A DNA stretch of 64,000 nt, from positions 12,414 to 76,413 of the forward strand of contig DASYZL010000019.1 in the NCBI GenBank assembly GCA_035946335.1. The letters are read 5' to 3'. Positions 8,607 to 58,161 of this stretch are shown here, piece after piece (within the stretch, counting starts at the first letter, position 1; each line of letters opens with the position of its first letter). A model generated the notes under the pieces. The model had not been told where the DNA came from and ran no database searches. It worked only from the letters and a program-made list of their open reading frames with translations. A program made the translations under genes and the position numbers. Source of the stretch: Patescibacteria group bacterium (GTDB lineage: Bacteria; Patescibacteriota; Microgenomatia; Levybacterales; UBA12049).

Positions 8607-10839
<2,233 letters not shown>

Positions 10840-10852
<13 letters not shown>

Positions 10853-12306: not shown

Positions 12307-12312
12307 AGCATT

Positions 12313-12558
12313 TTATTCTGCAATCCCAAGTTTTTTTGCAATAGTATAGTCCTTATGTTTTCCATTGTACTCGATAATTGCTCCTGCAATAAGATTTGTA
12401 TCTATGGTAATATCCAGTTGCACTGGCTGATGGATTTCTTCTGTAAACCAGTCTCTGATTGATGCAAGCTGTTTTTCCGTTGGATGAAACGCCAAAGTGA
12501 TATGTGCTACTTGTGGCATTGCTTTACCTGTTTGAGGAGGTTTTTCTATAACAGTCAT
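12313..12558 (-). CDS. atpH: Truncated ATP synthase delta (OSCP) subunit. Only the C-terminal domain is present.
   Basis: 81 aa. ...QLDITIDTNLIAGAIIEYNGKHKDYTIAKKLGIAE aligns to the delta C-terminal domain (..[27 protein letters not shown]..). Its start overlaps the atpF stop in an ATGA arrangement, which suggests translational coupling. Confidence 0.65.
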   Translation of the reverse strand: MTVIEKPPQTGKAMPQVAHITLAFHPTEKQLASIRDWFTEEIHQPVQLDITIDTNLIAGAIIEYNGKHKDYTIAKKLGIAE

Positions 12559-13220
12559 AGGAAAATACCATCTTCCTTGGCTTCTTCTAATGCTTCCTGG
12601 AGTAATGCCTGGTGATAGGAGGCAGGAATACTCTTTTTCATTACTTCCCGATACGATTTTACCACCAGCTCATTTACCTCAGCTGCTGCTTTTGATACTT
12701 GATCCTTTTTGTATTGTTCAATCATAGTGCGCGCTTCGGCCAACTCCTCATCGATAAATTGTTGTAGTGAACTTTTATTATCTATGGTTTCTTTTTGTAA
12801 ATCAGCGAGAGCGGCTGCAAGCAATACCTGACTTTTTTCCTGTATGGACTGTAAGGTAACAGTGAGGTTTCTCTTGTATGCCTTCAGATATTCTGCTGAA
12901 ACAAGAGAAAGTGAGTCTATGTCTTTCTGTAATAATTCCTGAACTGCTTTATCGAGTGTATTATGCACATCTGTTTTTGTCTGACCTGTTGCTGCGAGCA
13001 TTTGAGCAGATAAATCAGCTGCTTTTTCCACTATATTTTCTGCCTGATTCTGCCCGCTTTGAAGAATAGATTGGTAGTTATTTAATGCATGTGCTTCTTT
13101 ATCCTGAAACGTTTTCTCTTTTTTTAATAAAACGTAGACAAATAAACCTAAAGAAACGAGAACAATTAATCCAAAAAAGAAAAAAATATCCGTAATAAGC
13201 GGTGAAGTAAAAATATTCAT
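12555..13220 (-). CDS. atpF: ATP synthase b subunit (one N-terminal TM plus a long helix).
   Basis: 221 aa. N-terminal TM: IFFFFGLIVLVSLGLFVYVLL. The remainder is predicted coiled-coil, in the usual position between c and delta. Confidence 0.7.
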   Translation of the reverse strand: MNIFTSPLITDIFFFFGLIVLVSLGLFVYVLLKKEKTFQDKEAHALNNYQSILQSGQNQAENIVEKAADLSAQMLAATGQTKTDVHNTLDKAVQELLQKDIDSLSLVSAEYLKAYKRNLTVTLQSIQEKSQVLLAAALADLQKETIDNKSSLQQFIDEELAEARTMIEQYKKDQVSKAAAEVNELVVKSYREVMKKSIPASYHQALLQEALEEAKEDGIFL

Positions 13221-13984
13221 ATCCGTAATATCAGGTATCCCATGAAGATACCTGTTAATAATATTATGATAACCATAATGACGTTTAGCAATATAGAAAG
13301 TTCAATCATTTGGCCAGCTAAAGGGTTTCTACCGATTGCTTCAATACCCCGATGGATAGTTTTTGAAAAAATAAGAAATCCAAGACCAAACGATGCTAAT
13401 ATAACAAGAAGAGCAACGAGTAGCTTCAGTGCGACAACGGGATCTTCATATGTTGCAATTTCGCTTAGATTAAGCACATCGAGAAACGGTATGACAACAG
13501 GACTGGCAAATTGTTGGAAATGAATATTTATGCTTACCGTAATCTGCCTGACCTCATTTTTAGATGCGAAGGAAACAGGGTTGACAGACGCTCCGATAAC
13601 ATATCCACTTGTCACTGCTTTCTGACCTACTCCAGGAATTGTTGACGTCGTAATGAAATCACCTTTTTTTAGGTTACCATTGATTCCCGATACGTTAACG
13701 ACAGCATCACCAATATTAATAACCGGATAAGTTTTTGTTGCTCCAGGAACTTCAATGGTAATTGCAGGATTGGCTATAATCACACCTGTTATTAGCTGAT
13801 CATAAGCTTTATTACTCAAGTGATATCCTTGGGGTGAAAAGGAAACTATATCTCCAACGGCGATATTTTTATCGGCTAAAGGGAAATAGTTTGCGATACC
13901 TATTGAAGAAGCAAGTATTTGAACTGGTAGAATAAAACTTAACAACAGAATAAATAAAAGACATAAACCAATACGTTTTCCCAT
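13217..13984 (-). CDS. atpE: ATP synthase c-subunit (C-terminal ~65 aa hairpin) fused to a ~190-aa N-terminal signal peptide plus extracytoplasmic domain.
   Basis: The C-terminal LIFSKTIHRGIEAIGRNPLAGQ...LLTGIFMGYLIL aligns with c-subunit TM1-loop-TM2 (PS3: LIVSRTIEGIARQPE...). The N-terminal part has a signal peptide (MGKRIGLCLLFILLLSFILPVQILA) and the GD.VS...IPGVG domain also found in the two giant proteins. Confidence 0.65.
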   Translation of the reverse strand: MGKRIGLCLLFILLLSFILPVQILASSIGIANYFPLADKNIAVGDIVSFSPQGYHLSNKAYDQLITGVIIANPAITIEVPGATKTYPVINIGDAVVNVSGINGNLKKGDFITTSTIPGVGQKAVTSGYVIGASVNPVSFASKNEVRQITVSINIHFQQFASPVVIPFLDVLNLSEIATYEDPVVALKLLVALLVILASFGLGFLIFSKTIHRGIEAIGRNPLAGQMIELSILLNVIMVIIILLTGIFMGYLILRI

Positions 13985-24410: not shown

Positions 24411-25049
24411 ATGAAGTTTATTCTCCAGTCTCTTGTACTCGTTTCTTCATTTTGTCTTGTTTTCATGTGGGAACGAACCAACCTTTCTAATTACTCTATC
24501 CAAGCTCTATCAATCCTTATTATTGCCTATATTCTTCTTACTGCGATCCGCCATAGAAAAAATCCTCAAGCAAATTTTGGAGGTATGACAGATATTTTTA
24601 TTCTCAATACTGCAATCTTTTTATTGATTTTCTTGACTAATGATATTATTTCTCCGCTTTTCTTTTTACTATACTTTCTTGGTTTTGGTATTACGTTTAT
24701 TTTTGAACCTGTAACTGTTTTTGTTTATACGCTTGGGGCAATTGCAATTTTCCTTCCGGTTGTATTGAAAAACGGAGCGATGGATAGTTACTTAAAACTT
24801 GGATCGCTCCTGCTTATTACACCCCTGGCTTTTTTCTTCGGGCAAACGTACAAAGATAGAGACAAAGAGCTAACCCAGATGGAGGCACTGGAAGAGCGCA
24901 GTAAAAATGCTGCTGATACAATTGCCCAGGAAGTAAAAGAAATCATTGTCACTGAGAAGAAAAACCTACAAGGAAAAAACCTTGAGAAGCTTAATGAGAT
25001 CCTCGAAGAAACAGAAGACTTGCGTGAAGAAACAAAAGAGTCTCTATGA
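24411..25049 (+). CDS. Polytopic membrane protein with a C-terminal cytoplasmic coiled-coil (hypothetical). First gene of the surface-protein cluster.
   Basis: 212 aa with about five hydrophobic helices, then an E/K-rich helix (EALEERSKNAADTIAQEVKEI...). Confidence 0.5.
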   Translation: MKFILQSLVLVSSFCLVFMWERTNLSNYSIQALSILIIAYILLTAIRHRKNPQANFGGMTDIFILNTAIFLLIFLTNDIISPLFFLLYFLGFGITFIFEPVTVFVYTLGAIAIFLPVVLKNGAMDSYLKLGSLLLITPLAFFFGQTYKDRDKELTQMEALEERSKNAADTIAQEVKEIIVTEKKNLQGKNLEKLNEILEETEDLREETKESL

Positions 25050-25798
25050 GAAAAATTCTCCTGCCTTTTGTCAGTATTCTTCTTTTTGGAATGGTTTTTA
25101 CCCAACACGTTAAAGCATTTACCATGAGTAACCTCCTTTACATTCTCAGTTTGGGAAACCTTAACAGCATTGCCGGTGAATCAACCAGCCCCAGTAATAA
25201 ATTGAGACTGACTGTCGGGCAAACAGGGGCTGGTTATTATTCCGGTACAAATTATATCCTATGCGCGGGATTCTATGGGGGTGTTCGCTGCGCTAAACAA
25301 ACGCATGTGTTTTCTTTTACAATTTCCTCAACGTTTATTGACTTCGGCGGCCTAACACCAAATACACCGGTTAGCAGAACAAATACACTAACCGTTAGCG
25401 ATACTGGTGAGGCAGGTGCGAGTTATATTGTAACGGTCAATGAAAATCATCAACTCGCTTTATACAGCAATTCATCATGGATTCCTGATACTACTTGTGA
25501 TGACGGACTTTGCACACCATCGTCACCCAGTCCATGGGTAATCCATTCCGGCACATCTCTTACCTATGGATTTGGCTATCGATGCGATAACCTGTCAGGA
25601 AGCGAATGTCTAAGTGGATTTTCTACTGCAACTTATTTTGCACCGTTCATTGCTTCTCCAAGCGCCCAAACGGTGATGTCCGGCACAACAGGAACAAACC
25701 AGCAGGTACAGATTACCTATCGGGCAAATGCTTCTGCTTCTCAGCCTCCAGGATTGTATAGTAATATCATTACTTATATTGCTGTACCAACGTATTAA
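25046..25798 (+). CDS. Secreted beta-rich protein ending in the PPGLYSNIITYIAVPTY tail (WxL-like candidate).
   Basis: 250 aa with a Sec signal (MRKILLPFVSILLFGMVFTQHVKA). The C-terminus resembles that of the 26798 gene. Confidence 0.5.
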   Translation: MRKILLPFVSILLFGMVFTQHVKAFTMSNLLYILSLGNLNSIAGESTSPSNKLRLTVGQTGAGYYSGTNYILCAGFYGGVRCAKQTHVFSFTISSTFIDFGGLTPNTPVSRTNTLTVSDTGEAGASYIVTVNENHQLALYSNSSWIPDTTCDDGLCTPSSPSPWVIHSGTSLTYGFGYRCDNLSGSECLSGFSTATYFAPFIASPSAQTVMSGTTGTNQQVQITYRANASASQPPGLYSNIITYIAVPTY

Positions 25799-25799
25799 T

Positions 25800-26744
25800 A
25801 TGAGAAAAAGCATATATTTTTTATTTACAGGTGTTTTTTTGTTTTTTCTAGCAAAAAATGCTTTTGCGCAAACAGTTTCCCTTGGTATTACCCCAACGAT
25901 TTTCCAAATTAATGCAAAGGCACCAAGTGACATTAAATCAACCCTGACTATTATCAATCAAACAAACCAATCAGTTTCAGTTAATATCCTCATAAGGCCT
26001 TTCCGTGCTTCTAATAACAATGATGGAACAGTCTCATTTATTGACAAAAATGGAATAACTGGCGCTGATCCATTGCTCCTGAACAAGGTAAGCATTTTTG
26101 ATAGAAATAATCCAGTAAGTTCCATTACTCTATCTCCCGCAGAAAAAAAACAATTGAGACTTCATATTACTATCCCTCTAGATGAACCACCTTCTGACTA
26201 CTATTTTTCTATAATATTTCTATCAAATGGCATAGGAAACGATCAATCCTCTATATCCGCTCTTTCAGGAGGAATAGCGGCAAATGTTTTGCTTTCAATT
26301 GGACCCCAAGATCAAACGAGAGGGACAATTGAAAAATTTTCAACATCGTTTTTTAAGCAAGCAGGACCGGTCTCCTTTAGGATAGAAGTAAACAATCAAA
26401 GCTCCCACTATATTGTTCCACGGGGAGGGATACTCATAAGCAACATGTTTAACCAGACAGTTGGTATAGTGAATCTGTCTCAAGTGAATGTGCTTGAAAA
26501 TAGTAGCCGTTACATACCAGACGATAAAAACGGAAATACTATTGAAGCCATATGGGGTGAGAAGGTATTATTTGGGCTCTATAAAGCAACACTAACGATG
26601 GCGCTTTCATCTGATGGCCCAGTTTTTCAGCGAACCGTTTACTTTCTTGCCGTTCCTGCATACGTCATTTTTGGAGTATTTTTTGCTGTCTTTATAGCCC
26701 TCATTATTGCAGAGCGCGTAAAAAGACGAATGAAGACAGGTTAA
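25800..26744 (+). CDS. DUF916/DUF3324-like cell-surface protein with a C-terminal TM anchor.
   Basis: Start preferred at ATG 25800 (MRKSIYFLFTGVFLFFLAKNAFA signal) rather than 25728. It has the ..QTVSLGITPTIFQINAKAPSDIKSTLTIINQTNQSVSV.. beta-sandwich pattern and a C-terminal TM plus KRRMK tail. Confidence 0.55.
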   Translation: MRKSIYFLFTGVFLFFLAKNAFAQTVSLGITPTIFQINAKAPSDIKSTLTIINQTNQSVSVNILIRPFRASNNNDGTVSFIDKNGITGADPLLLNKVSIFDRNNPVSSITLSPAEKKQLRLHITIPLDEPPSDYYFSIIFLSNGIGNDQSSISALSGGIAANVLLSIGPQDQTRGTIEKFSTSFFKQAGPVSFRIEVNNQSSHYIVPRGGILISNMFNQTVGIVNLSQVNVLENSSRYIPDDKNGNTIEAIWGEKVLFGLYKATLTMALSSDGPVFQRTVYFLAVPAYVIFGVFFAVFIALIIAERVKRRMKTG

Positions 26745-26797
26745 CCATCGTATTGACATTTCATGTGTTTTTCCTGCAGTATAAATAAAGGTATTAT

Positions 26798-28225
26798 ATG
26801 AAATTAAAAGCACTTACTCGTTGTGTTGTTTTTTTATTTGTTTTTATTACACTTCTTGCTTTTGGAGCAAAACAATCTCATGCTGCAACATTAACTTCTG
26901 TCTCTGATACCCTTACTACTTCCCGCCCCTCCCCCTCAACGCCACTTTCTGCTGATGCTCTTGTAGGCTCAGGACAGGTAACTGTTGTTAATAATGGATC
27001 AACATTTTTAGCCTCAGACAGTGCAGAACTCTTTGTTGATAACACCTATGAGACACAGCCAATTGCAACCGTCGCTGCCATTGCATCAACCTATAATGTT
27101 TTCTTCACCGGAACAACTGCTAATTTTCATCACGCAGGCACAGTTTTAGCGGTTCCCATTACCGCGATGCATACAGCGAAGTTTACAACTGTTACATCGA
27201 TTCCTGCAGCCGGTAGTATCCAGATAGCTTTCCCTAAATCTGCTTCTACTGATTCAAATCAGGCTTCTCCTTCTGCATCCACTTTTATGCCGAATGGATT
27301 GGCTAGCGCGAACGTCGTCACCAATCAAGGTGGTATTAGCTCATGCTCATTAGTGGCATATGCAGCAGGTAATGCTCCAACAGTTAATTGTAACCTTTCA
27401 GCAACAATTTCAGGAAACACTACTATTGATATATTAATAGGGTGTAAATCTGGTAGTTCTTCCTGTACACCGAGCAATCAGGTTCCCACCTTGATCAATC
27501 CGACAAAAACTGCAATAAGCGGGCTTGCAGACACATGGAAGGTTAATATAAATACCTATAGCGGTGCGAGTGGAACCGGATCTATTCTTGATTCAGGATC
27601 AACCCTTGCAGGCACAATAGAATCAGTGAATGTCTACGCGCATATTGATCCGACATTTACGTTTCAGATTTTCGGAGTTGCCAATGGCACATCGATGAAT
27701 ACTGTTTGTACATCAAACGGCACAACGACCCAATTCGGAACTGACACAACACCTACAGCAGTCTATTTAGGATCATTACTCTCTACGAATATAAATTATG
27801 AAGCTCAGGAAATGAAAATCACGACAAATTCCGGTACAGGCTATACTGTTACTGCAACTTCATCAGGGCATTTGATTAATCCAGCAAATGGTTACTTCAT
27901 TGCAAATGCACAGGGAGATCCGACCAATAATGATACTCCTGTTCCGGTAACGGTCAGCGCAGGCAGTAACCAGTTTGGTATCAGCCCTTGTTCGAAAAGT
28001 GCAAATACAAATAATTTACCTTCAGCCGGAACCTGGGGACAAGGTGGAACACCAAAATTCGCAAATCCTTCTAATCTTTATTACTATACACTTATCAACG
28101 CAACAAGTGCGCCTTTAAGTACCGGAGACATTTTTTATGTGGAGTATGCAGCTACACCCCAGGGCAATACCCCTCCTGGGGATTATCGTACAATCATGAC
28201 ATATGTTGCCTCGGCAATATTCTAA
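26798..28225 (+). CDS. Secreted Thr/Ser/Gly-rich surface protein ending in PPGDYRTIMTYVASAIF (WxL-like candidate).
   Basis: 475 aa with a signal peptide (..FGAKQSHA). It is low-complexity and beta-rich, and shares its C-terminal motif with the 25046 gene. Confidence 0.5.
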   Translation: MKLKALTRCVVFLFVFITLLAFGAKQSHAATLTSVSDTLTTSRPSPSTPLSADALVGSGQVTVVNNGSTFLASDSAELFVDNTYETQPIATVAAIASTYNVFFTGTTANFHHAGTVLAVPITAMHTAKFTTVTSIPAAGSIQIAFPKSASTDSNQASPSASTFMPNGLASANVVTNQGGISSCSLVAYAAGNAPTVNCNLSATISGNTTIDILIGCKSGSSSCTPSNQVPTLINPTKTAISGLADTWKVNINTYSGASGTGSILDSGSTLAGTIESVNVYAHIDPTFTFQIFGVANGTSMNTVCTSNGTTTQFGTDTTPTAVYLGSLLSTNINYEAQEMKITTNSGTGYTVTATSSGHLINPANGYFIANAQGDPTNNDTPVPVTVSAGSNQFGISPCSKSANTNNLPSAGTWGQGGTPKFANPSNLYYYTLINATSAPLSTGDIFYVEYAATPQGNTPPGDYRTIMTYVASAIF

Positions 28226-28238
28226 GATTTTTATAGAT

Positions 28239-29285
28239 ATGATAATAACGAATCAAAAGAAAGATATTCGTGCAAAGACACTTATTGCTTTAGCTCTATG
28301 TAGCCTTATTTATTTACTGATTCTTCCCTCAGTTAAAGCGCAACTACAGCAGGAATCTATTACTATTTCTCCCCCCTCTCTTTCCCTCACGGTAAATCCA
28401 GGAGACAAAAAAGAAGGAACATTAGGACTCATTAATGATTCAGATGCTACCCTTACCTTTGCAACAAGTTTATTTGATTTTATCGTTCAGGATAAACATG
28501 GGACAGCAGAGATTTTACCGAGAGGAACTATAACAAATAATAAGTACAGTGGCTCAAATTGGCTCGCAGTCTATCCTCAAACACTTACTTTAAAACCTCA
28601 TGAAAGAGGACAACTACAGTATTTTATACAAGTTCCGCCTGATGCAAGACCAGGAGGACATTATGCAGCAATTGTGTATCAGCCCATTGTACCTGGTCAG
28701 AGTGCCGGAAGCGGCGCATCAATAAAAACTCAGCTTGCAACACTTGTTTATATAACTGTTGCAGGGGTTGTAAATGAAAACGCCAAGGTGACAGAATTTA
28801 GCGCACCGAAATTAAGCGAATATGGTCCAGTAGCTCTTACAACCGAAATTCAAAATAACAGTGATGTACATATTCGCCCAATAGGCACTATTATCGTGAA
28901 AGATATGCTTAGAAGAACTATTGATGTAGAAAATCTTGAACAGCAAAACATTTTTCCCGGAAATGTGGCGCTTGATTACACGAACAATGTTGGCAGTAAA
29001 TGGATGATCGGGAGATTTTCTGCCACACTTATGGCAACGTACGGTACAAACAATAATCTCCCCTTATCGGCCGTTGTATATTTTTGGGTTATTCCATGGA
29101 AGGTAATTACCATTAGTATTCTTGTATTGATCGCTATCATTCTCTTTATCCTTATCTTACTAAAGCGAAGAAAAAACAAAGTTCCACCTATAAAACACGT
29201 GCTTAATACAAATCCTGGATTACTAGAAAATCACGAATCTCCTACTAGATCAATCCACTTGGCAAAAAATTCCGAAGGTGTCTAG
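28239..29285 (+). CDS. DUF916/DUF3324-like cell-surface protein with a C-terminal TM anchor. Paralog of the 25800 gene.
   Basis: Start at ATG 28239 (MIITNQKKDIRAKTLIALALCSLIYLLILPSVKA). It has ..SITISPPSLSLTVNPGDKKEGTLGLINDSDATLTFATSLFDF.., a C-terminal TM and a KRRKNK tail. Confidence 0.55.
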   Translation: MIITNQKKDIRAKTLIALALCSLIYLLILPSVKAQLQQESITISPPSLSLTVNPGDKKEGTLGLINDSDATLTFATSLFDFIVQDKHGTAEILPRGTITNNKYSGSNWLAVYPQTLTLKPHERGQLQYFIQVPPDARPGGHYAAIVYQPIVPGQSAGSGASIKTQLATLVYITVAGVVNENAKVTEFSAPKLSEYGPVALTTEIQNNSDVHIRPIGTIIVKDMLRRTIDVENLEQQNIFPGNVALDYTNNVGSKWMIGRFSATLMATYGTNNNLPLSAVVYFWVIPWKVITISILVLIAIILFILILLKRRKNKVPPIKHVLNTNPGLLENHESPTRSIHLAKNSEGV

Positions 29286-30117
29286 GAACAGCACTGGTAA
29301 TTAGTTGACGACGTGAAAAAGTTTCCTCATTGCCGCGAAATGGTATGCCTCCTACGTAATTTCCATTTTGTTGATCAATACACTCGCCTGAGCCAACTAA
29401 AGCCAATGCAACTAAAATACCGTAAGCTTCATTGGTTAACCTGCCTTTCCAGTCACGCCTGCGAAAAGAACTACCACTGAAACCAGGACATGCTTCACCG
29501 CTCACAAATGATAAATTCATCACGCCATGTTCGAGTCCATTGTACTGTAATACAGTGTCTCCTTTTAACGAATCAGAAAGAATAACCTGTTCCCCAACTT
29601 CCAATAAATCAAACGGGAGTACAATGAGAGGAGTAAGTTTATTTTGCGATACTGCTTCGTTTACTAATTCAAGGGTTGTTTCAGGTATCTCAGCGGCGAC
29701 ACATGCATCATGCACAATCCCGCTGGATATAGGATAGGTTGCTTTTGTGCCTTCAATTTCTTTCCAGTCCAAAGCGGGGGTAAAGTTAATTGGAAGATTA
29801 TCATTGACTCCAGGTATTGTTATGTCATTTCTTGTAGTACCATCAATGACATGTTTTGCGGTTATGAAACGCAGTCTAGTTAATGAATTCGTTTTTCTAT
29901 AAATTCCTACACGTGCAGAACCTTTATTCGTTTTAATGAGTACCTCGGAACTTCTCCTTAAAGGATCACTAATACCAGTAATTGCTCTTTCGTATTCCTC
30001 ATAGCTCGGTGTTGATAAACCAGTCCTTTCGTCACCCTGACTGAAAAAGACTCCGGCTATCGCAGCGGTCGTCAATCCGCCAATAAATTCTTTCCTATTC
30101 ATGATGGGACTTTTCAA
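29245..30117 (-). CDS. Secreted trypsin-like (chymotrypsin-fold) serine protease, putative.
   Basis: 290 aa with an N-terminal hydrophobic region (GGLTTAAIAGVFF). Candidate catalytic residues are His in TAKHVIDG and Ser in GEACPGFSGSSF (a GDSGGP-like motif). Confidence 0.45.
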   Translation of the reverse strand: MKSPIMNRKEFIGGLTTAAIAGVFFSQGDERTGLSTPSYEEYERAITGISDPLRRSSEVLIKTNKGSARVGIYRKTNSLTRLRFITAKHVIDGTTRNDITIPGVNDNLPINFTPALDWKEIEGTKATYPISSGIVHDACVAAEIPETTLELVNEAVSQNKLTPLIVLPFDLLEVGEQVILSDSLKGDTVLQYNGLEHGVMNLSFVSGEACPGFSGSSFRRRDWKGRLTNEAYGILVALALVGSGECIDQQNGNYVGGIPFRGNEETFSRRQLITSAVPRHLRNFLPSGLI

Positions 30118-30171
30118 GGCATGTAAGTATATAAATCTTTTTTTACTCTGTCAATGCTACCTTCAATAAAC

Positions 30172-31044
30172 TTAATATCCCACAAACCATGCGTGATGCA
30201 ATTTCTTGTTCCTAAAAAATCTATCGAAAAATTGTTTATCTTCTTTTGCAGGATTTGGGAAACCTGTAGTTTTTTCATTAAACTTTTTCCAAAGTATAAG
30301 AATAAGGATAAAGATTGCAATGATAAGTAAAAGAAAAATAAACCACCAAGTCGTTAAAAGTCCTATAAGTTTCTTCAGGAGATCATTCAAACTATTCCTT
30401 ACCTGTTCTTGAACGCCTAAAACCAAAATGGTTGCTTTATTTAATGGCTCTTGTGATTTTTTGCTTTGATAAACAGCGTCAGCAAAGAACTGGTATATTC
30501 CTGCTTTTGCCAGAAGTACGTGAATTTCATAATACCCGGTATTATCAGCTATTACTGTATAGGTTTTACCGTTATTGATATGTATTGTTACTCTAGCTCC
30601 CGACATGCTATAGCCAAAAATGATTGCATTGCTTCCAGCATTGATTTGCGTTCGATAGACGCCGATTGTGGGAGGAAGATAGAGGTCGCGAATGTCTCTA
30701 CTCACCATTACTGGCTGAATATCAAAACAGCTCTGCGACTCACCTAATCGCTTAACATCAACTGCATCAAAACATAACTTATTAAATCCTTTTCCTACAA
30801 CTAAGTTTAGGAAAGAAAAATAGCCATTGGCATCTGATACTGTTGATGCAAGGACATTATCATTATAGATAAGACTTATCGAAGCAAATCGTGCAATATA
30901 TCCATATATATTGATATAAAATGAGCCGATAATTGCAGAAACTTGTGTCTTGCCTGTCTCTTGGGTTTGATATGCTAAAACGTCCTTACAAAAAAATAAA
31001 GCGAGGCAAGAAATAATAACCAGTAAAGGCAGAATCTTTTTCAT
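30172..31044 (-). CDS. Secreted protein with two carboxypeptidase-regulatory-like (Cna-B-like) beta-sandwich domains and a C-terminal TM anchor.
   Basis: Signal peptide MKKILPLLVIISCLALFFC. Two ..SDANGYFSF.. / ..ADNTGYYEIH.. motifs. TM WWFIFLLLIIAIFILILILW. Confidence 0.5.
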   Translation of the reverse strand: MKKILPLLVIISCLALFFCKDVLAYQTQETGKTQVSAIIGSFYINIYGYIARFASISLIYNDNVLASTVSDANGYFSFLNLVVGKGFNKLCFDAVDVKRLGESQSCFDIQPVMVSRDIRDLYLPPTIGVYRTQINAGSNAIIFGYSMSGARVTIHINNGKTYTVIADNTGYYEIHVLLAKAGIYQFFADAVYQSKKSQEPLNKATILVLGVQEQVRNSLNDLLKKLIGLLTTWWFIFLLLIIAIFILILILWKKFNEKTTGFPNPAKEDKQFFDRFFRNKKLHHAWFVGY

Positions 31045-31770: not shown

Positions 31771-31785
31771 TATAATTTGTATAAT
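31771..31785 (+). promoter_or_regulatory. Tandem -10-like hexamers (TATAATttgTATAAT) upstream of the giant gene.
   Basis: Read from the sequence. They lie in a 700-nt AT-rich leader region and overlap the TTG start (31777) used by the ORF track. Confidence 0.35.
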
Positions 31786-31836
31786 CTCGAGGCTAAAGAA
31801 CAAATTTCACGGATTTCACAACTACTAATCAGACGA

Positions 31837-34800
31837 ATGGAAATTATTCAAAAATTTAAAGCTTATTTGCTTTCGCAGAGATCTGTTCCCTCAAAGGCAA
31901 CGGTAAAAAACTATATTGCTGATATTCATCACTTTATTGAATTCTGTGAAAACTCACTTCATCAGACGTTTTTACCTTCTGAAATACATGCGGAACAACT
32001 GGAAGCGTTCAAAATTAAAAAACTACAAGATTTATCAGCAAGTTCTGTTGAACGCCACTTCTCTTCACTTCGAAAATTCTTTATTTTCCTTAAACTCGAA
32101 GGATATATCGCTGTTACTCCGTTTGAAAAAGCCGAGATTGAAGCTCCTGTTTCAGTTGACCCGTTTCATTTAAAAGAATTTAAAGATTATCTCTATATCT
32201 ATAACGCATCGCATCTTACAATAAAAAACTACCTCATTGACATTAAGCAATTTCTCCATTGGGCAGAGGAAGTAACTAAAGTAAAAGATAATTATCAAAT
32301 AAGTGAGCAGAATGTCATGCATCTTGTGAATGATAAATTCATTGAGGAATATCGTGACAGATTACTCCGCGAGCAGATATTCTCTCCTGCTTCAATTAAC
32401 CGGAAACTTTCATCGCTTCGGAAATATCTTGCGTGGGCATCTGAACAGGGTTTATTGCAGTCGAGAACTCCTTTTATTACAAATATTACCGAAGATTTGC
32501 ATATTCTCCCACATACTGAAGCAGCAAATCTAACAGAATTCCCGATAAAATCAGGCTCATATTCAAAAATTCCTCCGGTGAGACTTTTTCAGAAAATACA
32601 TGAAGGATTCGATCTTATATTTGAGTATAGCGTTATTGTTCCTCTTGCAAAAGCTGCAGGAACATTCGGATACCACTTCTGGGTTATGAAAGGTAAACCA
32701 TTATTCGTGACAACAGCGCATATTGGTTTTTCACGTCTAAAAAATCCAGTACGATTTCGTAATATATCAAAAGCTGTCTATGAACCTCTTTCTCTTTCAA
32801 CAAAGCATTTTCCGCTGCATAAAAAAATAATGCATCATATCCGTTATTCAAGGCCGGACTGGTATCGCAATTATCGCTCTAATGCTGTAAGTGCTTATTT
32901 TAACTTAGCGATAATTGGAATTTTTATCCTTGCAATAGGATTCAGTGGCTATCTTGCCTTCGGCAGAAGATCACAATCAACGTTAGCAGCTCTCCCTACT
33001 GCTCCGCCAAGAATTTTATCTTTTCAAGGTAGACTGACAGACCAAAATAACAACGCAATAACAATAAACTCGAATTTGCGTTTTGCTATTTATAATGACA
33101 CGTCCGCCACTGGCTCCGGGCACATACTGTGGCAAGAAGTTGACAAGGTTACTCCCGACAGTGATGGCGTGTTTTCAGTTTTATTAGGTAATGGCTCTTC
33201 CTGCGGAGCTGATCCTACTGTGGTTGCTACTGGACCATGCCAGATTCCCTCAACACTTTTCACGCAGAATGCAACGCTTTACCTTGGTGTTACCATTGAA
33301 GCAACCTCAGAACTTACTCCGCGACAGCAACTTGCTACCGTTGCCTATGCCACAAATGCTGAAACCTTACAAGGACTTCCCCCAATCACTGCTGCTGGCG
33401 CAGGAACAAATAATGTCGTACTCGCACTTGATGGTTCGGGAAATTTATCTATTGGTGCTTCAACAACGTTTCAATCAACTTCCGGACAATTTACTCTTTC
33501 GGGAAATTCTATTGTACTCAATACAAATGCGGCTTCTAACGGCAACATTGTTTTAGCGCCAAATGGTTCGGGATTTATTGACCTTCAAAAACCACTACAT
33601 AATAGTACTTTAAATAACAATATCACTTCTGCTGCGGGGGCAGTAGAAGTGGATGGTCTCCTCGCAATATTAGCCACAAGCAGCGGGCAATCAGCTTTCA
33701 CTATCAATCAAAACGGAGCGGGTCCTATCATTAGCGCAAGTAGTAGTGGGAATGCTAAATTCACTGTTGATAATAGTGGAAACGTTACGGCGAACTGGTA
33801 CTATACAGGACTCGGTAATACTTACTATATCAATAACGCTACATCTAACCTTAACTCACTCACTTTAGCAGGAAACTTTAGTCTTTCGGGAAATGTCACG
33901 AGCAACCTTATTCCTTCAGCAGCGGACACATATAACCTAGGATCTTTGGGGAACGAATGGAATACGTTATACGCAAAAAACATCATCACTTCTTCATCTG
34001 CTGGTATTGGAACAGGTTTGTTTGGCAATGCAGAGCTGGTTGTGAATCAACCAAATGCTGCGGGAGATATTTTCACAGCTTCACAATCAGGAAACACCAA
34101 ATTTACCGTCGGTAACTCCGGTTCTCTCACCGCTGCCACCTTTAATACTGCAAACGGTGTCATATATAGTACCAATACATCAGGACTTCTCTCAGAAACA
34201 GCTGCGGGAACAACAGGACAGTGTTTTACCGGAAACACAGGGAGTGCACCGACATGGTCATCCTGCTCCTCTGCTGCATCAAACTTCTGGCAACTCAACT
34301 CCGGTGCGCTTGCTCCACTCAACATTACCAATGACCTCCTGATCGGTGGTGTCTCAACAGGCAGCGCAACCACTTCCTTCCAGGTATTTGCCAAAGCATA
34401 CAGCAATGATCAGGGCACTGTTCCTGCAGGAACAGCAACAACCAGCGGAAATATTGTGTTCAACGGAACTGGAACACAAGCATACAACCTTCTCAATAAC
34501 TCCTCCCTAGGTTTTTACACTTCCTACGGTGGAGACAAAGGACTCAGTGCCACCCCATCCCTGTTCATTGCCAACAGCGGAAGTAACGGGAATGGGAGTG
34601 GCTTTGTTGGGGTAGGGACAAACAGTCCAGGAGCAACACTTGATGTGAATGGCAACCTGCTCCTTGGTGCAAACAGCACCATTGATGCAAGATCCTCAGG
34701 AACCCTTACCATTGGTAACGGAGCAAATACATCAGGATTAACCCTTGGCAAATCAGGGGTAACAACAACATTCAACTCAACCTCATGGACTGCAACACCA

Positions 34801-37800
34801 ACCATTAGTGGACTCATCACGGCAAACGGAGGGTTAACAGTTGCATCAGGAAAGAACCTGATCCTTTCAGAACTGACTGCTGGCTCCGTACCGTTTGTTG
34901 GTGCCAGTAACATACTTTCCCAGGATAACAGTAACCTGTTCTGGAATTCCGGAAGTAAACAGCTTGGTATTGGCGCAAATAGTAACCTGGCAGGAACACT
35001 GGACGTGAGGACAACATCAGGAACCCTTTCTGTGGCTTCCATCTCAGGAGCTACCTCTTTTGCTGGACTTGTGGTTGATAACTCAGGTGTCGGTGATCTG
35101 TTCACTGCGTCATCATCAGGACTCAATCGATTTACCATTAAACAGAACGGAAACATTACTGATACAACTGCAACCAGCGTAAACTTCTCTGGTGCTGCGC
35201 TCACTGTTTCTTCGTGTACTGGATGCGGTGGAGGATCTAGTACATGGACGACCTTTACTAACAATTCCAATACAATCATCGATCCGAATCCTTTGACTGA
35301 TGCCCTGTCCATCGGGAACGCTGGAACAGGCAATTATCTTCCCTTCTCGAGTTTCTATGTTGAACCCTCCTTTAATTCTAAAGGCAATGCATTAGTAGGC
35401 ATTAATCAGACAGGTGGAGGCCCAATCTTTACTGCTTCGCAGTCAGGGAATACAAAGTTTGTTATTGACAACGCTGGCAACGTTGGGATAGGGACGACGA
35501 TACCATCTCAATCTTTACAAATTGCAGGAGGAAGTGTTTTGCTAGATAATGCCCAGTTTTACGAATTTAAAGACCATGCATCTGGAGCAACAAGAGGCAT
35601 ATTGACTTTAACCTCAGCGGATAATGTACAACTAAACAATGGAGCCGGAACCAATGGAGGAAATATACAAATAGGCATCACAAACTCTGCTAATACTACA
35701 GGTAAGATTGAGTTTTTAAATATAAATTCTGGAGGCACAGAGGTAGAAAGGATGCGACTTGATCCAAATGGACTTCTCGGTATTAATACAACATCTCCTC
35801 TAGGAATTCTTGATATAAGAGGAAACAATGTTAATGGGACGAACCCAATGAATGGCACCATCCCAATTGCCTCTTTCTCCGGTCAGACTTCTTTCGCCGG
35901 ATTGGTTGTTGACAACTCCGGAGTTGGAGATCTATTTACTGCATCATCGTCAGGATTGAATCGGTTTGTTATAACTCAGAACGGGAACGTTGGGGTGGGC
36001 ACAAGCACCCCAGCTCAACCGTTGACGATTAGCGGTACCAATAACTTCCTCGCACAATTAAATAACACCTCTGATTATGCCAGACTAAGACTAAATGGAG
36101 CTATCAATAAAGGAAGTGATTATATTTTTGGTTCTAATGGCAGTTCTCAGTTTGGTATGTATACGCAGGGCGGGAGTGGCGGCAATAATGATTTAGGATT
36201 TTTTCCTAACGATGGATCAATACCCGACTTATATATAACAAATAATACAACTAGCTCAAATACTATCGCAATGGGTGGCGGATTGAGTCAAGGAATGACT
36301 CCACTTGGCACGCTTGATTTGAGAGCTGCTTCTGCAACTCTTCCCGTTGCCTCAGTTTCTGGTAATACCACTTTTGCTTCTCTAGTCGTTGACAACTCGG
36401 GAGTTGGCGATATATTTACTGCTTCATCCAGCGGGCTGTCACGATTTACCATCCAGCAAAATGGTAATATCGTGCTTGGTGCTGATATATCAACACCCTC
36501 TGCGCTCACTGTTCGAGGCGGAATAGCTTCAGGTACCAACACTACAGGAGGAAATCTCACGTTTAATGCTTCCAATGGCACAGGTACAGGTGGATCAGGT
36601 TCTGTGATCTTCCAGACTGCGCCAGGAGGGGTGACTGTTGACTCGACAGCATATACTGTCACGGCAGCGGGTCCCTCCACGGTAAGCTGGAAACATACAG
36701 TCGGAACGGAAAATAATATGCTCTTGATTGTCAATGTCGGGTTGAGTACGGGTGCAGTCACGGTTTCGGGTGTAACGTACAATGGTGTCAGTTTATCTCA
36801 TATGACTTCAGCACCGGAACCTTGTACCGTCAACACGAGCTGCACTGCGGACATGTGGTATCTCAAGGCACCTGCAAGCGGGACAAACAGTGTCATTGTG
36901 ACACTGAGCGGAATAACTGCCAATGTCGTTGGCTCATCGATCTCACTATATAATGTTGATCAATCAAGTAATACTTTTGGAACCGCGGTGGTAGCGCAAA
37001 ATAGCAGTACCGGCACGGTGACGAACACAGTTACAACAGTCGCAAATCAGCTTGTTGTTGATTCCTTTTCAGCCCATGGAAGCGGCATCTGGAACAACGT
37101 CAGTCCCCAATCCGGATATGGCGAAGATAACAGCCATGGCTGGGGAGCTTCCTCTTATCAGGCAGCAACCGGAACAAGCACAGCAATGTCATGGAATAAT
37201 ACCGGGACATTGGATAAATGGGCGGATATTGCTGTGCCTATCAACCCGGTCTCAACGACCAGCGATAGCTTAGTTAACTCCCTATCCATAAATCCAGACG
37301 GAAATATAACCATAGGGTCTGCCTCTGCCCAGGAGCGTTCGCTTGCCGTCACCGGCACGTGGGGTGGCAATGTCGTTGTTGATGCACAGTCAGAAACAGG
37401 CGGAACAACACTTATCAACGAGTCAACGCCCGCTCTCGTGTATGATTTATCAAACAATCAGGGAACAAATGCAAACAACAGTACTGTTACGTTCAATATT
37501 ACCGCTTTGCCTAATGTTGATGGCACGTTCGCATTTATCCGTTCGCACGCTACTAAAGGAGTGACAGGATCAAACCAGAAAGATACTGTTGTGGTGCAAA
37601 TCAATGGAACAGAAATTACCTCAATTACAACAACAGCAAACACTACTGCGCAAGATGCATCAGGGAACTATGTGGTTTTTCGCTCAAACGGCGCGTGGCA
37701 TCTGGAGCTTGGGACCAACCAAAGTTCCAGTGACACTACCGATCTTGCTGAATGGATTCCGTTTGCTGGAGTTAAGCCACAACCTGGAGAGCTCGTCAGT

Positions 37801-39792
37801 GCTGCAACGCAATCAGGAGTTACTGTGCAAAAAACACAGGGTGCATATGACAGTAAGGTTTTAGGCATTATCACGACGAATCCGAATACGGTGTACGGAA
37901 AAGAAACGGCAGATTCAATTGTACTAGCCCTTGCCGGACGGGTTCCCACCATTGTTACGTCACTTTCCGGGAATATCGGACTGGGTGACGCGATTGTTTC
38001 CTCTCCTATTCCGGGTGTTGGTATGATTCCACAGCAAGCTTCAGAATCAGTCGGAAAAGCACTGGAATCATTTACTCCTACTGCTTCCACTTGCCAGACG
38101 GTATCTTCCTATGATGCCATTTCCTGGCCGGATGATAATGGCACAAACCAAAACCATCCGTGCTATGGCATTCCTGTTTCAGGATTTGACCAGCAAACGC
38201 AACAGACACTGATAAAACAATACGCTCTACTTCCTACAGACATTGTCTATGTGGGGAAAATTATGGCACTTACTAATCTTTCATATACCAGTCCTGTTAT
38301 CGCCTTAACAAATGCGGGAGACCTTACCATTGAACCAATTGCTTTAAGTGGTAACGGTATTGAAACGCAATATGGGGTTAAGACTACCCAAGGAAATCTT
38401 CTTACAGAGATCGGTTCTTTTGCAACAGCAGTCATTGGCAATATTCGTGCAGGTGGCATTTCAGCATCTGCTATTGCAACTAATTCCCTTTCCGTTGCTA
38501 CAGATAACGTTTCCATTAGCGGACAACCTCTTCGTGACTATATCATTGGGGTCGTGACTCAGGCAAACTTACTTGCGCAAAATAGTATTACTTCTCCTCT
38601 GGTAAGCGTTAGCACGATCCATACGAATATTATTTCACCGTTAACGAATACATCTCATATTGCTCTTGACCTTTCAAACTCTAGGTTAGAAATCAAAAAA
38701 GACGCAAGCGGTTCTGCTGTGGCTAGTATTGATACTAATGGCAATGCATCATTTTCAGGAACACTTAACTCGGAAAATATTGCAGTCAATAACGATGCAA
38801 CTGTTTCCGGAACACTCCATGTCCATAAAATCGTGGCTGATGAAATACTTGGGCAATCGGAAAATGTGAGTACAATTGCTGCGCAAAATATTACGAATGT
38901 TACGAATATTTATTTCGCAACACCCTCTGGGACACCTGCTGCTGAAAATATCGCTACAGGACTTGGCAATACAAGCACTCAATCAGGTGATTTGCTAGCA
39001 TCAGGCTTTTCACAGGCTTCACAATTCATGAATATTGCATCTTTTTCAGGTGAATTTGCCTATATCCCCAATCTCCACGCAACAACAGGATTGTTTGAAG
39101 AAGGACTTGCAGCGTTGGGACCGACAAGCCTGACGGATACCTCTATCAATGGACAGCTTACTATCGGCAAGCAACTCCTGCTTGCTGATACCAGCATTAA
39201 CGTCTTGGGTGGAGATCTGGAAATTCAACCACTGAAACAAGGTGGCGTATCGTTTGCAGATGGAACTATTTATATTGATAATAATGGCAATATCAAATTC
39301 AACGGCACAGCTACATTTAATGGTAAACTCGCAGTAAACATCATTTCCCCTTTAGGGAATGATAAAAATCTTAATCTGCAACTAGGAAAAAATGCAAGCG
39401 GCTCCGCCATTGCAATATCTGATTTGTCTGTAAACAATGCTTCAGGTTCAGGAATCTTTACTATTGACCAGCTAGGTAATCTGGTTGCTTCAGGAGCGGC
39501 AACTATTGCAAAGCTGAATTTTAATCTTGTACAACCGGCGCAGGCGTTATCTGATACAGAAGTTGTCGCGACCGGCTCAGCAGGAACAGCAGCAATTGCA
39601 CCCTATCAAACAGAAGTAACCATTGATAATCCTAATGTCACAGAAAATTCACTGATTTATATCAGTCCTGTTGGCAATATTTCCGGACAAACTCCCTATC
39701 TACGAAGGCAGGTTGCCGGTAGTTCATTTACCGTTGGTATCCCGCAAGACACACAATCACAAACATACTTTAACTGGTTAATCGTCAACTGA
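31837..39792 (+). CDS. Giant surface repeat protein of ~2650 aa. From N to C: two tandem phage-integrase-type SAM-like core-binding domains (cytoplasmic), a TM signal-anchor, SISG..[20 protein letters not shown] modules, the GD.VS...IPGVG domain and a C-terminal YFNWLIVN tail.
   Basis: 8-kb ORF. ATG at 31837 preferred ([11 protein letters not shown]...); the ORF track uses TTG 31777. The SAM-like repeats are [15 protein letters not shown]...[29 protein letters not shown] and [15 protein letters not shown]...[52 protein letters not shown]. Modules are shared with the 2998..8166 protein. Confidence 0.8.
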   Translation: [2651 protein letters not shown]

Positions 39793-42171: not shown

Positions 42172-44006
42172 CTATCCGCCTTTTTGAACGGATACTTCCC
42201 TCAAAAACTCGTTATAATCTCCCCCATCAACCTGTCCATCGTCATCAAGGATATCAGCTCCAGGTGAGAGCGTTGATGGACGGAACTGTGCTGGACAGAG
42301 TGAGGTATTGACTTGCGTACCGTAGCAGGAAACGAGAATATTATAATCGGTAAGATCAAGTTGGCCGACGTTCACTATATCACCATTCACCAGAGAGACA
42401 GACGGAAGGGTAATAGTCTGTCCTTGAGAAGCAGTAATAACCCCAGGTATCTGTTTGGAAAGAAATCCATCCATTTTCACCGTCACCGTGTACTGTCCTG
42501 AAGGAAGATTATTGGCTCCAACTGTTCCCTGGAAATTGCCACTTGTGGGAACATACTGAACGGTGCCTGTGACCGTAGCCACAGGTGCGCTTGTTGTTGT
42601 GAGGGTAACAGTGACAGCTCTTGCTGTGTGTAATGGTGCAGTATTCTTTCCAGAAGAAGATGATACATTGTCGCCACAGTTGCCTAACCCATGTGGACAA
42701 ATGGTTATATGGAATGTTGTTTGTCCTTGGGAAACTGTCGGTACTGGGGTAAGAGAAAAAGTTGGTGTTGGCTGTAGTGATGGCATACCTGCTGAACTTA
42801 TACGAAACAATCCGACACCGTGCGCTGCAATAGACGAGCTAATAGAATCCGTTGTGGTTGAAGTGGTATTTGTCCAAAGATTATGCATCGAATATGAACC
42901 AGCTTGTGTTATGCCAATTGCAGAAAGTGTTGTAGTAATTGTTGCGGTAGTTGTTCCTCCATTAAAAAGCAGTACTGCGTAGTCTCCATTTGCAAGCGGT
43001 CGCGCTAATACTTCTCCTGTTCCCTGAATATTTATTCGTTGTGCGGCTTTTCCTAATGGATCCTGATCAATTGCAATAACATCTTTATTGGTAAGTATTG
43101 CTTTTGTCGTTGCCGACATCGTACGTAAATCATTCCCTGCCAGCAGCGGGGCCGCAAGCATTGCCCATAAACTAAAATGGGTTTGATCTTCTATAACACT
43201 CATGCCGCCGTTTCCCACTTCCAGCATGTCAGGATCATTCCAATGCCCTGGTCCTGCGTGTGATGAGAGGGGTATCTCATCATGATAGAGAGTGGTTATA
43301 CTGGTAAAATTATCCTTAATATCCTGAAAAAACGCGCCATATTTGCGTATTGATACAGTGCGTCTATTTGTTTAAAGCCCGTATTTGCAACATGCATACT
43401 GATGACCATTGGACGGTTGTATTTTATAGAAAGATCAGAGAATAATTTTGCAGAGTTTATGATATCTTGTTCGGTTTTCCACGCACTGCAATTATCAATT
43501 TTCACAAAATCAACACCCCATGACGCGAACGTTTTCATGTCAATATCTTCATGCCCTAAACTTCCTAATAATCCACGACACGTTGTTAGTCCTTCTGTCG
43601 TATAGATGCCAAATTTTAATCCTTTTGCATGAACATAATTAATAAGATCAACAACACCATTTATACCGTTTACAGAAGGAAATCGTGTTTGATCAACACT
43701 AATTGTTCCATCTGGATTTCTTACCGTTCCTGCCCAGCTATCATCAACACTGAAATATATATATCCCGCGTCTTTTAAACCGCTATTCACCATAGCATCT
43801 GCTTCCTGTTTCAATATCTGTGAATTAACAGCATCATGAAAATGATTAAATTGATCCCATCCCATGGGAGGCGTTTGCGCAAGCTCGTTTGCCCCTATTG
43901 CCTGCTGTATGATTACCTGTTTTTGTTGGGTAAAGATGATGAGCAGAGGAAACGTGATTCCTAAAAACAAGAGACCAATAACTGATAAGAGCGATTTTGC
44001 TCGCAT
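42172..44006 (-). pseudogene. GH27 alpha-galactosidase with a C-terminal beta-sandwich and dockerin-like module, disrupted by a frameshift in a T6 homopolymer.
   Basis: The N-terminal ORF 43296..44006 has ..PPMGWDQFNHF.., KFGIYTTEGLTTC and DFVKIDNC. The C-terminal ORF 42172..43227 starts MLEVGNGGMS...SLWAMLAAPLLAGNDL, and its upstream in-frame sequence reads ..HAGPGHWNDPDMLEVGN. The frames switch at 43327-43332 (AAAAAA on the plus strand). The C-terminus has a dockerin-like DILDDDGQVDGGDYNEFL. Confidence 0.75.
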
Positions 44007-56262: not shown

Positions 56263-56382
56263 AGTCTCCGGCCTTGACCCATTGTCCCGGAACATAAAGA
56301 TCCAGTATCGTAGGCGCTGAGATGTTTCACGACTCTGTTCGGAATGGGAAGAGGTGGTACCATCTCGCTTCAAAGACCGAAA
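56263..56382 (-). rRNA. rrf: 5S ribosomal RNA.
   Basis: The minus strand reads ..GATGGTACCACCTCTTCCCATTCCGAACAGAGTCGTGAAACATCTCAGCGCCTACGATACTGG.., matching the 5S consensus (CCCATxCCGAAC..GTGAAAC..AGCGCC.ATGGTACTG). The ends are approximate (±10 nt). Confidence 0.8.
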
Positions 56383-57679: not shown

Positions 57680-57687
57680 ACTGTCTT

Positions 57688-57722
<35 letters not shown>

Positions 57723-57783
57723 CCGGCGAACAGCCGGACCCTTGGGAGCTTCTCCACCCCCAGGATGTGATGAGCCGACATCG

Positions 57784-58128: not shown

Positions 58129-58161
<33 letters not shown>

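Follow-up and report, generated by a model that had tools for sequence, protein, structure and literature searches.

What does the compact gene cluster at positions 24411-31044 of the Patescibacteria contig DASYZL010000019.1 encode? It lies in a stretch of 64,000 nucleotides that was analysed as a whole (the window), and a preliminary description, made from the sequence, had likened its seven genes, here called G1 to G7, to the WxL/DUF916 loci of Gram-positive bacteria. Our analysis indicates that the cluster is probably a divergent Levybacteria (Microgenomates) version of the Pam pilus operon of the candidate phyla radiation (CPR), which would produce a surface fibre with neither usher nor sortase. 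The gene inventory of the preliminary description was sound, in that all seven open reading frames (ORFs) were found where it had placed them and the motifs shared between them are real. G1 to G5 lie on the plus strand and are packed as an operon, in which the G1 stop and the G2 start overlap by 4 nucleotides and the later gaps are 1, 53 and 13 nucleotides; G6 and G7 lie on the minus strand. The genome had been called CPR-like, correctly: the NCBI source is a Patescibacteria metagenome-assembled genome (MAG), the 23S rRNA gene holds three group I introns, and the nearest relatives of the host are Levybacteria (Levyibacteriota are members of the Microgenomates group). A promoter and terminator scan of the cluster gave nothing over shuffled expectation, and no further pilin-type or chaperone-type genes were found elsewhere in the window.

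Pam pili are known from Ca. Mycosynbacter amalyticus (Saccharimonadia), two filaments of which were solved by cryo-EM (bioRxiv 10.64898/2026.03.03.709456), and their parts comprise the pilins PamA, PamB and PamE, the single-domain tip PamT, the chaperones PamC and PamD and the anchor PamR (bioRxiv 10.64898/2026.03.03.709456; NCBIfam NF058579, NF058581). The likeness to these parts is most direct in the two secreted proteins, G2 and G4. G2 (25046-25798, plus strand) has a signal peptide, a conserved N-terminal segment of about 65 residues and a C-terminal domain (C-domain) at residues ~90-250, and is a PamT-like single-domain pilin that would sit at the tip. G4 (26798-28225, plus strand) has the layout of a two-domain Pam-type major (shaft) pilin, with a signal peptide, an N-terminal beta domain (~30-273), a conserved linker and a Pam_pilin_C domain (~287-475). 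Against NCBIfam CPR_Pam_pilin_C, G4 scored E 3.1e-5 (24.1 bits, curated cut-off 55), with model positions 3-148 of 148 lying on residues 319-475, and 34 of its 47 relatives matched the same model (best E 9.1e-14). G2 matched both CPR_pilus_PamT (E 6.7e-6, 25.7 bits, equivalog cut-off 240) and CPR_Pam_pilin_C (E 1.7e-5), as did all 21 members of its family, with best E values of 3.5e-13 and 4.6e-11, respectively. Judged by these profiles, G4 is a remote member of the Pam pilins that is not named as such at NCBI's cut-off, and G2 is PamT-like, not an equivalog.

The preliminary description had noticed that G2 and G4 end alike, G2 in QPPGLYSNIITYIAVPTY and G4 in TPPGDYRTIMTYVASAIF. The shared motif proved to be the tail of a whole homologous domain, the sole domain that G2 has in common with G4: residues 90-250 of G2 align with 314-475 of G4 by HHalign (probability 97.7%, E 2e-12), while BLASTP alone finds the tail only (E 0.002). 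With its Gly about 15 residues from the end and its aromatics near the C-terminus, this motif is similar to the strand conserved at the C-terminus of fimbrial subunits; in the G4 family the final residue is an invariant Phe. The G2 family has in addition two invariant Cys pairs, C151/C156 and C180/C188. Homologues of G4 number 436, and those that are named are all Patescibacteria or Levybacteria hypothetical proteins. A search with the G2-family profile returned no named PamT among the 120 matches listed of 1350, all of them close CPR proteins. Pfam yielded nothing useful for G2, G4 or their families; it gave a weak match to SCPU (Csu-type) on the G2 tail and weak ones to GBS104-like_Ig in 6 of the 21 G2 relatives.

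In PamA and PamB conservation is highest in the donated linker and in the site that binds it (bioRxiv 10.64898/2026.03.03.709456). The inter-domain linker of G4 (27617-27676, plus strand; residues 274-293, IESVNVYAHIDPTFTFQIFG) contains the stretch AH[IV][DE]PTF[TS]F, one of the two most conserved in the family, the other lying in the N-terminal domain. The AlphaFold2 (AF2) monomer model of G4 has two domains (pLDDT 87.5), and in it residues 274-286 are coil, with pLDDT 71-78. Such a segment, conserved and yet unstructured in the monomer, would suit a strand that finds its partner in another subunit; the linker is a putative donated strand.

The remaining paralogous pair, G3 and G5, resembles the chaperones. 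PamC and PamD are FimC/PapD-like proteins with a C-terminal transmembrane helix (bioRxiv 10.64898/2026.03.03.709456). G3 (25800-26744, plus strand; 314 residues from the Met of MRKS, in agreement with the NCBI record) has a signal peptide, beta domains at ~28-168 and ~176-285, a transmembrane helix at 288-314 and a K/R tail; G5 (28239-29285, plus strand) has the same signal peptide, two beta (Ig-like) domains, C-terminal helix and K/R tail, its cytoplasmic tail being longer (~40 residues). That the two are paralogues, as had been proposed, is borne out by 23% identity over 285 residues (BLASTP E 3e-20) and by HHalign (99.8%). By the architecture described for PamC and PamD, both would be chaperones of that type. 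The AF2 model of G3 (pLDDT 92.7, predicted TM-score 0.80) shows two beta domains and a transmembrane helix, with a flexible loop of low confidence at 141-160 that precedes the last strand of domain 1 (159-168); this loop and strand are a candidate donor (G1-like) strand. When the model was searched against the PDB with Foldseek, the first match was the E. faecium WxLIP (9i25_C, 9i1y; E 1.6e-10), in support of the DUF916 relationship proposed in the preliminary description. The next ranks were held by the chaperones CfaA, CsuC, DraB, SafB, Caf1M, FimC, PapD and EcpB, together with RbmA; chaperone-usher chaperones gave E values of 4e-9 to 9e-7 and target-normalised TM-scores of 0.44-0.55. The G3 model also resembles transglutaminase and CEP192 domains. 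At the sequence level neither G3 nor its family matched the Pfam families PapD_N and PapD_C.

The first rank of WxLIP bears on what had been claimed for G3 and G5, namely a DUF916/DUF3324 architecture. The DUF916 half of the claim held. PF06030 (DUF916 = WxLIP_PGBD) gave 24.6 bits with G3 and 17.8 bits with G5, both below the gathering score of 27.3, and it was matched in 35 of 45 G3-family and 12 of 17 G5-family members (the G5 matches are weak); some relatives already bear a precomputed PF06030 call. As an independent set, 29 true WxL clusters were collected from metagenomes through the motif NQIDKxxxYFDLK, and 21 of their WxLIPs were compared by HHalign. The G3 family matched them with a probability of 96.0% (E 4.9e-9) and the G5 family with 87.1% (E 4e-6) over 235 columns that span both domains (G5 25-271, WxLIP 16-279). 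The DUF3324 half found no support at the level of profiles: PF11797 had no match in G3, G5 or their relatives, although a second Ig-like domain and a transmembrane helix are present in the G3 model. By profile and by model, G3 and G5 are remote homologues of DUF916/WxLIP. The metagenomic clusters themselves (loci L032-L060; for example L032, 6564-13487) hold, in a regular order, a long WxL protein of 700-1600 residues, a protein of ~120 residues, 2-4 short WxL proteins of 237-266 residues and then a WxLIP of 338-368 residues, and many of the fetched loci have a protein of ~267 residues and further conserved genes after the WxLIP; the set is useful for comparison with the Pam operon.

The homology of G3 and G5 to WxLIP also supports the main rival to a pilus, a static complex of the WxL/Csc type, in which G3 and G5 would be permanent membrane receptors that hold G2 and G4 non-covalently by strand completion, without polymerising into a fibre, and in which the ligand would be a polysaccharide or the host envelope. 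In composition the cluster parallels WxL clusters (one small and one large subunit with a common C-domain, and a two-Ig transmembrane protein), the WxLIP strand by which AF2 predicts the beta-sandwich of WxL to be completed makes the same contact with no polymerisation, and two chaperone-like genes for two subunits would suit 1:1 pairing. We nevertheless consider this explanation unlikely. G2 and G4 match the Pam pilin models, which are named after subunits of filaments solved by cryo-EM, and the conserved, unstructured linker of G4 is hard to account for without an intermolecular partner. The WxL component itself, moreover, was not recovered: PF13731 was unmatched by G2, G4, and their 21 and 47 relatives, respectively, even at E <= 1, and G1-G7 contain neither a W-x-L motif nor an LPXTG sorting signal. 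Compared with 48 WxL domains, the pilin C-domain reached an HHalign probability of at most 3.3%, which is non-significant. The same local block, G2 TVSDTGEAGASYIVTVNENHQL and WxL TDNRGTESGWTLNVRQNGQF, topped 2 of 3 HHalign runs (those with the G2-family and the combined C-domain profiles), again non-significantly, and by eye the C-terminal strands of pilins and WxL domains are alike and colinear; the WxL chain of 9i25 was not among the listed fold matches of G4. Homology of G2 and G4 to WxL domains is thus no more than hinted at. The analogy with a WxL-type locus is right as regards DUF916 and the general architecture; for the secreted subunits it is unproven. We found no support for a role in binding polysaccharides, nor for a connection with glycoside hydrolases, both of which had been attached to it.

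A dedicated anchor is a further feature that a static complex leaves hard to account for, and G7 (30172-31044, minus strand) is the candidate. In this putative pilus base or anchor protein a signal peptide and a brief N-terminal extension precede two prealbumin/Ig-like domains, which are followed by a transmembrane helix and a conserved cytoplasmic tail, KKLHHxWFxGY. Its earlier designation as Cna-B-like was fair: CarboxypepD_reg of Pfam was matched in 17 of 17 relatives, and Big_6, Big_1, SdrD_B and SpaA were matched as well. PamR has two tandem beta-sandwich (FnIII RbmA-like) domains, a transmembrane helix at the C-terminus plus one extra N-terminal strand (bioRxiv 10.64898/2026.03.03.709456). 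The architecture of G7, with its two tandem beta-sandwich domains, C-terminal transmembrane helix and extra N-terminal segment, fits a PamR-like protein by analogy. The mature N-terminal extension (30916-30954, minus strand; residues 31-43, GKTQVSAIIGSFY) has the family consensus VxVSAxVGEFY, and a pattern V-x-V-x-A-x-[VI] is common to it and to the G4 linker (E-S-V-x-V-x-A-H-V-D-P-T-F), a hint that the extension is a candidate terminating donor strand.

G1 (24411-25049, plus strand; 212 residues) heads the operon. It had been described as a membrane coiled-coil protein and is indeed polytopic; its C-terminus is a conserved, acidic coiled coil (KLNEILEETEDLREE), and the family alignment has a mean column identity of 56%. 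No meaningful Pfam or NCBIfam match and no informative family was found for it; it is possibly a membrane assembly or regulatory platform.

Conservation of the gene order was examined in a set of loci obtained by scanning a single genome of each species with patterns derived from 11 closer G4-family sequences. The scan found 29 loci with G4 relatives, from Levybacteria/Patescibacteria MAGs, and the window proteins were compared by BLASTP with all ORFs of these loci. The order leuS (minus), G1-G5 (plus), G7 (minus), G8 (plus) was found in essentially all loci with sufficient flank, and the arrangement of the leucyl-tRNA synthetase gene, G1-G5, G7 and G8 is kept in ~20 independent genomes, which is conservation far beyond chance. 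G2, G3 and G4 were adjacent in 20 loci, G7 came directly after the operon in 18, G1 lay directly upstream of G2 in 16, G5 was present in 16 and G8 followed G7 in 14. Because this six-gene synteny is strict in ~20 genomes, we regard G1-G5 and G7 as one functional unit. Copy numbers of pilins and chaperones differ across the lineage. The shaft-pilin gene is duplicated in tandem inside one cluster (L022, 7578-8945 and 9977-11353), another cluster (L021) is without the second chaperone gene, G5, and in four loci (L003, L005, L006 and L007) a lone G4 paralogue lies on the contig of the main cluster, a few kb from the arginyl-tRNA synthetase gene. Separately, TPA MAG records titled 'uncultured Gammaproteobacteria bacterium' bear a Levybacteria-type pilus cluster with the leuS synteny (L002, L005, L007, L008, L011, L015, L018, L020, L023, L026, L027 and L029); the organism named in them seems to be a mistake or a placeholder.

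The neighbourhood of the cluster fits what is known of pam operons, which lie near ATP synthase genes and a giant protein like a tail fibre and of which Microgenomatia are a major carrier, detected by remote searches only (bioRxiv 10.64898/2026.03.03.709456). It fits because the host belongs to the CPR and the Microgenomates, an ATP synthase lies near and a giant protein is adjacent. The giant protein, G8 (31777-39792, plus strand; 2671 residues), carries at its N-terminus two SAM-like domains of the phage-integrase type (Pfam SAM_4/SAM_5 at residues 26-120 and Phage_int_SAM_1 at 132-224, the latter with E 1.9e-18), followed by a huge repetitive region rich in Gly, Ser, Thr and Asn, and is named 'site-specific integrase' by NCBI. 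A DNA-binding-type domain fused to a giant, probable surface protein is an odd combination. By analogy, G8 may correspond to the 'tail fibre-like protein' beside pam operons, a functional tie that we draw from synteny. An F-type ATP synthase operon (8607-13984, minus strand) lies ~12 kb upstream of the pilus operon, which echoes the co-localisation of ATP synthase and pam genes in the Pam preprint. It comprises the beta gene (8607-9986), an ORF of 291 residues (9977-10852), which its position suggests is the gamma subunit, the alpha gene (10840-12306) and smaller ORFs beyond.

The homologies to the Pam pilin models and to WxLIP, the likeness of fold to chaperone-usher chaperones and the conserved operon are results of the analysis. 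From the model of the Pam preprint and the pattern of conservation we infer that the subunits polymerise, in which order they do so, and what parts G7 and G1 play; the biological target is likewise inferred. All subunits would be exported by Sec; their signal peptides appear cleavable by inspection. The C-domains of G2 and G4 would be incomplete Ig-like folds, and G3 and G5, with their C-terminal helix in the cytoplasmic membrane, would cap these domains by strand insertion, in the manner of PapD-type chaperones or WxLIP. G2, in which the acceptor domain is present and the shaft N-terminal domain absent, would start the fibre at its tip, and each G4 subunit would join by inserting its linker (residues ~274-286) in the C-domain of the subunit before it. 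G7 would stop growth by donating its N-terminal extension, its transmembrane helix tying the fibre to the membrane, with G1 as a conserved membrane partner. Such a fibre would likely function in contacts with host cells or surfaces.

Several observations weigh against a Pam pilus and were set against this scheme. The NCBIfam scores all lie far under the curated cut-offs (25.7 bits versus 240 for PamT, 24-25 versus 55 for Pam_pilin_C), and NCBI annotates every gene of the cluster (VGT05_04415 to VGT05_04445, on an 88.7-kb contig of the Patescibacteria MAG) as a hypothetical protein. Fold searches with the G4 model gave generic beta-domain matches only (a phage tail, EF-Tu beta-barrels, a Csu pilus), searches of the PDB by sequence, with G4, G2 and the family profiles, gave nothing relevant, and neither they nor the fold searches found the M. 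amalyticus Pam structures, which are apparently absent from the copy of the PDB that was used. The structure predictions are of monomers, from which donor-strand exchange in the Levybacteria variant is an extrapolation. HHalign's best match to the G4 linker is the G7 extension, but it is non-significant (9 columns, E 0.02, probability 2%). In its parts, the window has one shaft pilin where the known system has PamA, PamB and PamE, the operon is headed by the extra polytopic membrane/coiled-coil gene G1, and G7 matches families of the prealbumin/CarboxypepD_reg type, unlike PamR, for which FnIII RbmA-like domains are described.

Some of these points would also suit a third explanation, according to which the proteins are unrelated CPR surface adhesins or envelope proteins whose similarities to Pam, WxLIP and chaperone-usher components reflect a common beta-sandwich architecture and not a shared assembly. 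Ig-like folds match promiscuously, the G3 model having also found RbmA, transglutaminase and CEP192 and the G4 model phage-tail and EF-Tu beta-barrels, and the window proteins fail every test at a curated threshold. The profile matches are specific, however: only the Pam models and PF06030 recur across whole families (21/21, 34/47, 35/45 and 12/17), HHalign to independently gathered WxLIPs reaches 96%, and strict synteny of six genes in ~20 genomes points to one functional unit. We therefore regard mere similarity of fold as very improbable, and a Pam-type pilus as the reading that best suits the evidence.

The gene that separates the operon from G7 does not belong to it. G6 (29245-30102/30117, minus strand) had been described as a secreted trypsin-like protease, a description that the motifs around H84, D132 and S209 (in C-x-G-[FY]-S-G), invariant in five sequences, support, although no Pfam or PDB profile matched it and it is not part of the system. 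Its relatives number only 5 among 1.84 billion representative proteins; most have an RR motif ahead of an N-terminal hydrophobic stretch, Tat-like by inspection, where G6 of the window has RK. From these sequence features G6 is plausibly a secreted PA-clan serine protease, possibly of a new chymotrypsin-fold family. A part in the pilus system is ruled out by its absence from all syntenic loci, none of which contains a counterpart, by the small number of its relatives (five), by the unrelated context of the nearest one, located among glycosyltransferases, and by its own strong promoter-like site (30154-30126). G6 is taken to be an unrelated insertion between the operon and G7.

Elsewhere in the window, an alpha-galactosidase (Melibiase_2) is split over two ORFs, 42172-43227 and 43296-44006 (both minus strand), the N-terminal part of the domain lying in the upstream ORF and the C-terminal part, with Melibiase_C, in the downstream one; the split may reflect a frameshift, a sequencing error or a pseudogene. 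No other glycoside hydrolase was seen near the cluster, and the statement that the cluster lies next to glycoside hydrolases was loose, since this one is ~11 kb off, past two large genes. A 23S rRNA region (57643-61518, and also 56266-56381, minus strand) has 5S rRNA and tRNA-Ala genes nearby. The three group I introns in the 23S rRNA gene were located with Rfam at 57480-57689, 57792-58095 and 59361-59566; such introns are common in CPR rRNA genes. An ORF of 176 residues inside the 23S gene (58624-59154) possibly encodes a homing endonuclease. Near the start of the window a second very large ORF (1722 residues; 2998-8166, minus strand) adjoins tRNA-Arg and tRNA-Pro genes.

The Pam pilus as a kind is already known from the 2026 preprint and the NCBIfam models. 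What is new here is a divergent Microgenomates variant, with its extra G1, one shaft pilin, an anchor of the prealbumin type and a fixed linkage to leuS. A second new point is that the Pam-type chaperones of Levybacteria are, as profiles and models have it, related to the DUF916/WxLIP proteins of Gram-positive bacteria. This homology is unmentioned in the Pam preprint (bioRxiv 10.64898/2026.03.03.709456), the WxL papers are silent on Pam, and our literature search found no paper tying DUF916 or WxL to the CPR or to donor-strand assembly. CPR bacteria appear largely dependent on contact with host cells, yet only a small number of surface organelles are known from them. The Pam pilus, whose structure has so far been solved in one Saccharimonadia species only, probably has a strictly conserved six-gene form in Levybacteria. 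The operon offers a minimal parts list for reconstitution: a tip, a shaft, two chaperones, an anchor and one membrane protein (G1). Through the chaperone family, the Pam and WxL literatures, which do not cite each other, become connected.

The link to WxLIP suggests a common, chaperone-assisted and usher-free assembly of surface proteins in single-membrane bacteria. We tentatively propose, with somewhat more doubt than confidence, that Pam operons and the WxL/Csc clusters of Firmicutes could be two branches of one ancient usher-less monoderm system, in which WxLIP would correspond to PamC/PamD, short WxL to PamT and long WxL to PamA; with the same reserve, the W-x-L motifs might correspond to the G-Y-x-V and T-Y-x-A strands of the cluster. 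As regards the chaperones, the proposal is supported by PF06030, Foldseek and HHalign; as regards the subunits, it is only hinted at by matches that are non-significant. Were the proposal true, WxL proteins would be able to build donor-strand fibres, or else Pam pili would have arisen from a static complex of the WxL kind, and the model of WxLIP as a binder of peptidoglycan and host would need revision. The WxLIP link also yields a specific, testable prediction about the working of those WxL clusters that serve virulence and adhesion in Enterococcus and Listeria.

Among named systems, the sortase pili of Gram-positive bacteria share with the cluster their Ig-like/Cna-B-like domains, and G7 has weak SpaA and SdrD_B matches. 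They differ from it in that G1-G7 have no LPXTG signal and the cluster genes include no sortase, so that anchoring would use a transmembrane helix. With the chaperone-usher pili (Pap/Fim; archaic Csu; alternative CFA/I) the likeness is the chaperone fold of G3 at the level of structure, to which are added the C-terminal pilin motif, the weak SCPU match of the G2 tail and the Csu pilus match of G4. The CPR system, in contrast, has no outer membrane or usher: no usher was found among G1-G8 or in the window, the lone 'usher' match being a spurious 12-bit NCBIfam match inside G3. G3 and G5 are membrane-anchored, not soluble, and leave PapD_N and PapD_C unmatched; Pam-type pilins carry an additional N-terminal domain; and the strand proposed to be donated is an inter-domain linker, not an N-terminal extension.

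WxL/Csc clusters (Enterococcus, Listeria, Lactiplantibacillus) consist of a short WxL protein, a long WxL protein and WxLIP, the latter with the layout DUF916-DUF3324-transmembrane helix (PMC10599100; PDB 9i25, 9i1y), and in the WxL literature AF2 predicts a WxLIP strand that completes the WxL beta-sandwich. G3 and G5 have the layout of WxLIP (signal peptide, two Ig-like domains, transmembrane helix, basic tail); as in these clusters, the small subunit consists of the shared C-terminal domain only, and the large one of N-terminal domains plus the same domain. A strand of a two-Ig protein predicted to complete the incomplete beta-sandwich of a subunit is common to the WxL and Pam systems. Unlike WxL clusters, G1-G7 are without PF13731, a W-x-L motif or an LPXTG partner, and PF11797 went undetected; there are two WxLIP-like genes per cluster rather than the usual one, and the host belongs to the CPR and not to the Firmicutes. 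The WxL literature that we searched describes WxL proteins as peptidoglycan-bound surface proteins, with polymers and pili unmentioned.

The differences from the Pam system, beyond those weighed above, are that sequence similarity is remote and far under the NCBIfam cut-offs, that G7 lies on the opposite strand and the linkage to leuS is fixed, and that the filament was seen for M. amalyticus while the Levybacteria variant is known from genes alone. The two systems have in common a CPR host, a two-domain pilin with Pam_pilin_C (G4) beside a single-domain PamT-like protein (G2), two paralogous FimC/PapD-like two-domain proteins with a C-terminal transmembrane helix (G3 and G5), and a two-beta-domain transmembrane protein with an N-terminal extension (G7). 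Both have, further, a strongly conserved inter-domain linker (G4) and paired cysteines (in G2, as in PamA and PamB), and in both an ATP synthase and a giant fibre-like protein stand in the neighbourhood, while usher, sortase and ATPase are lacking from the system.

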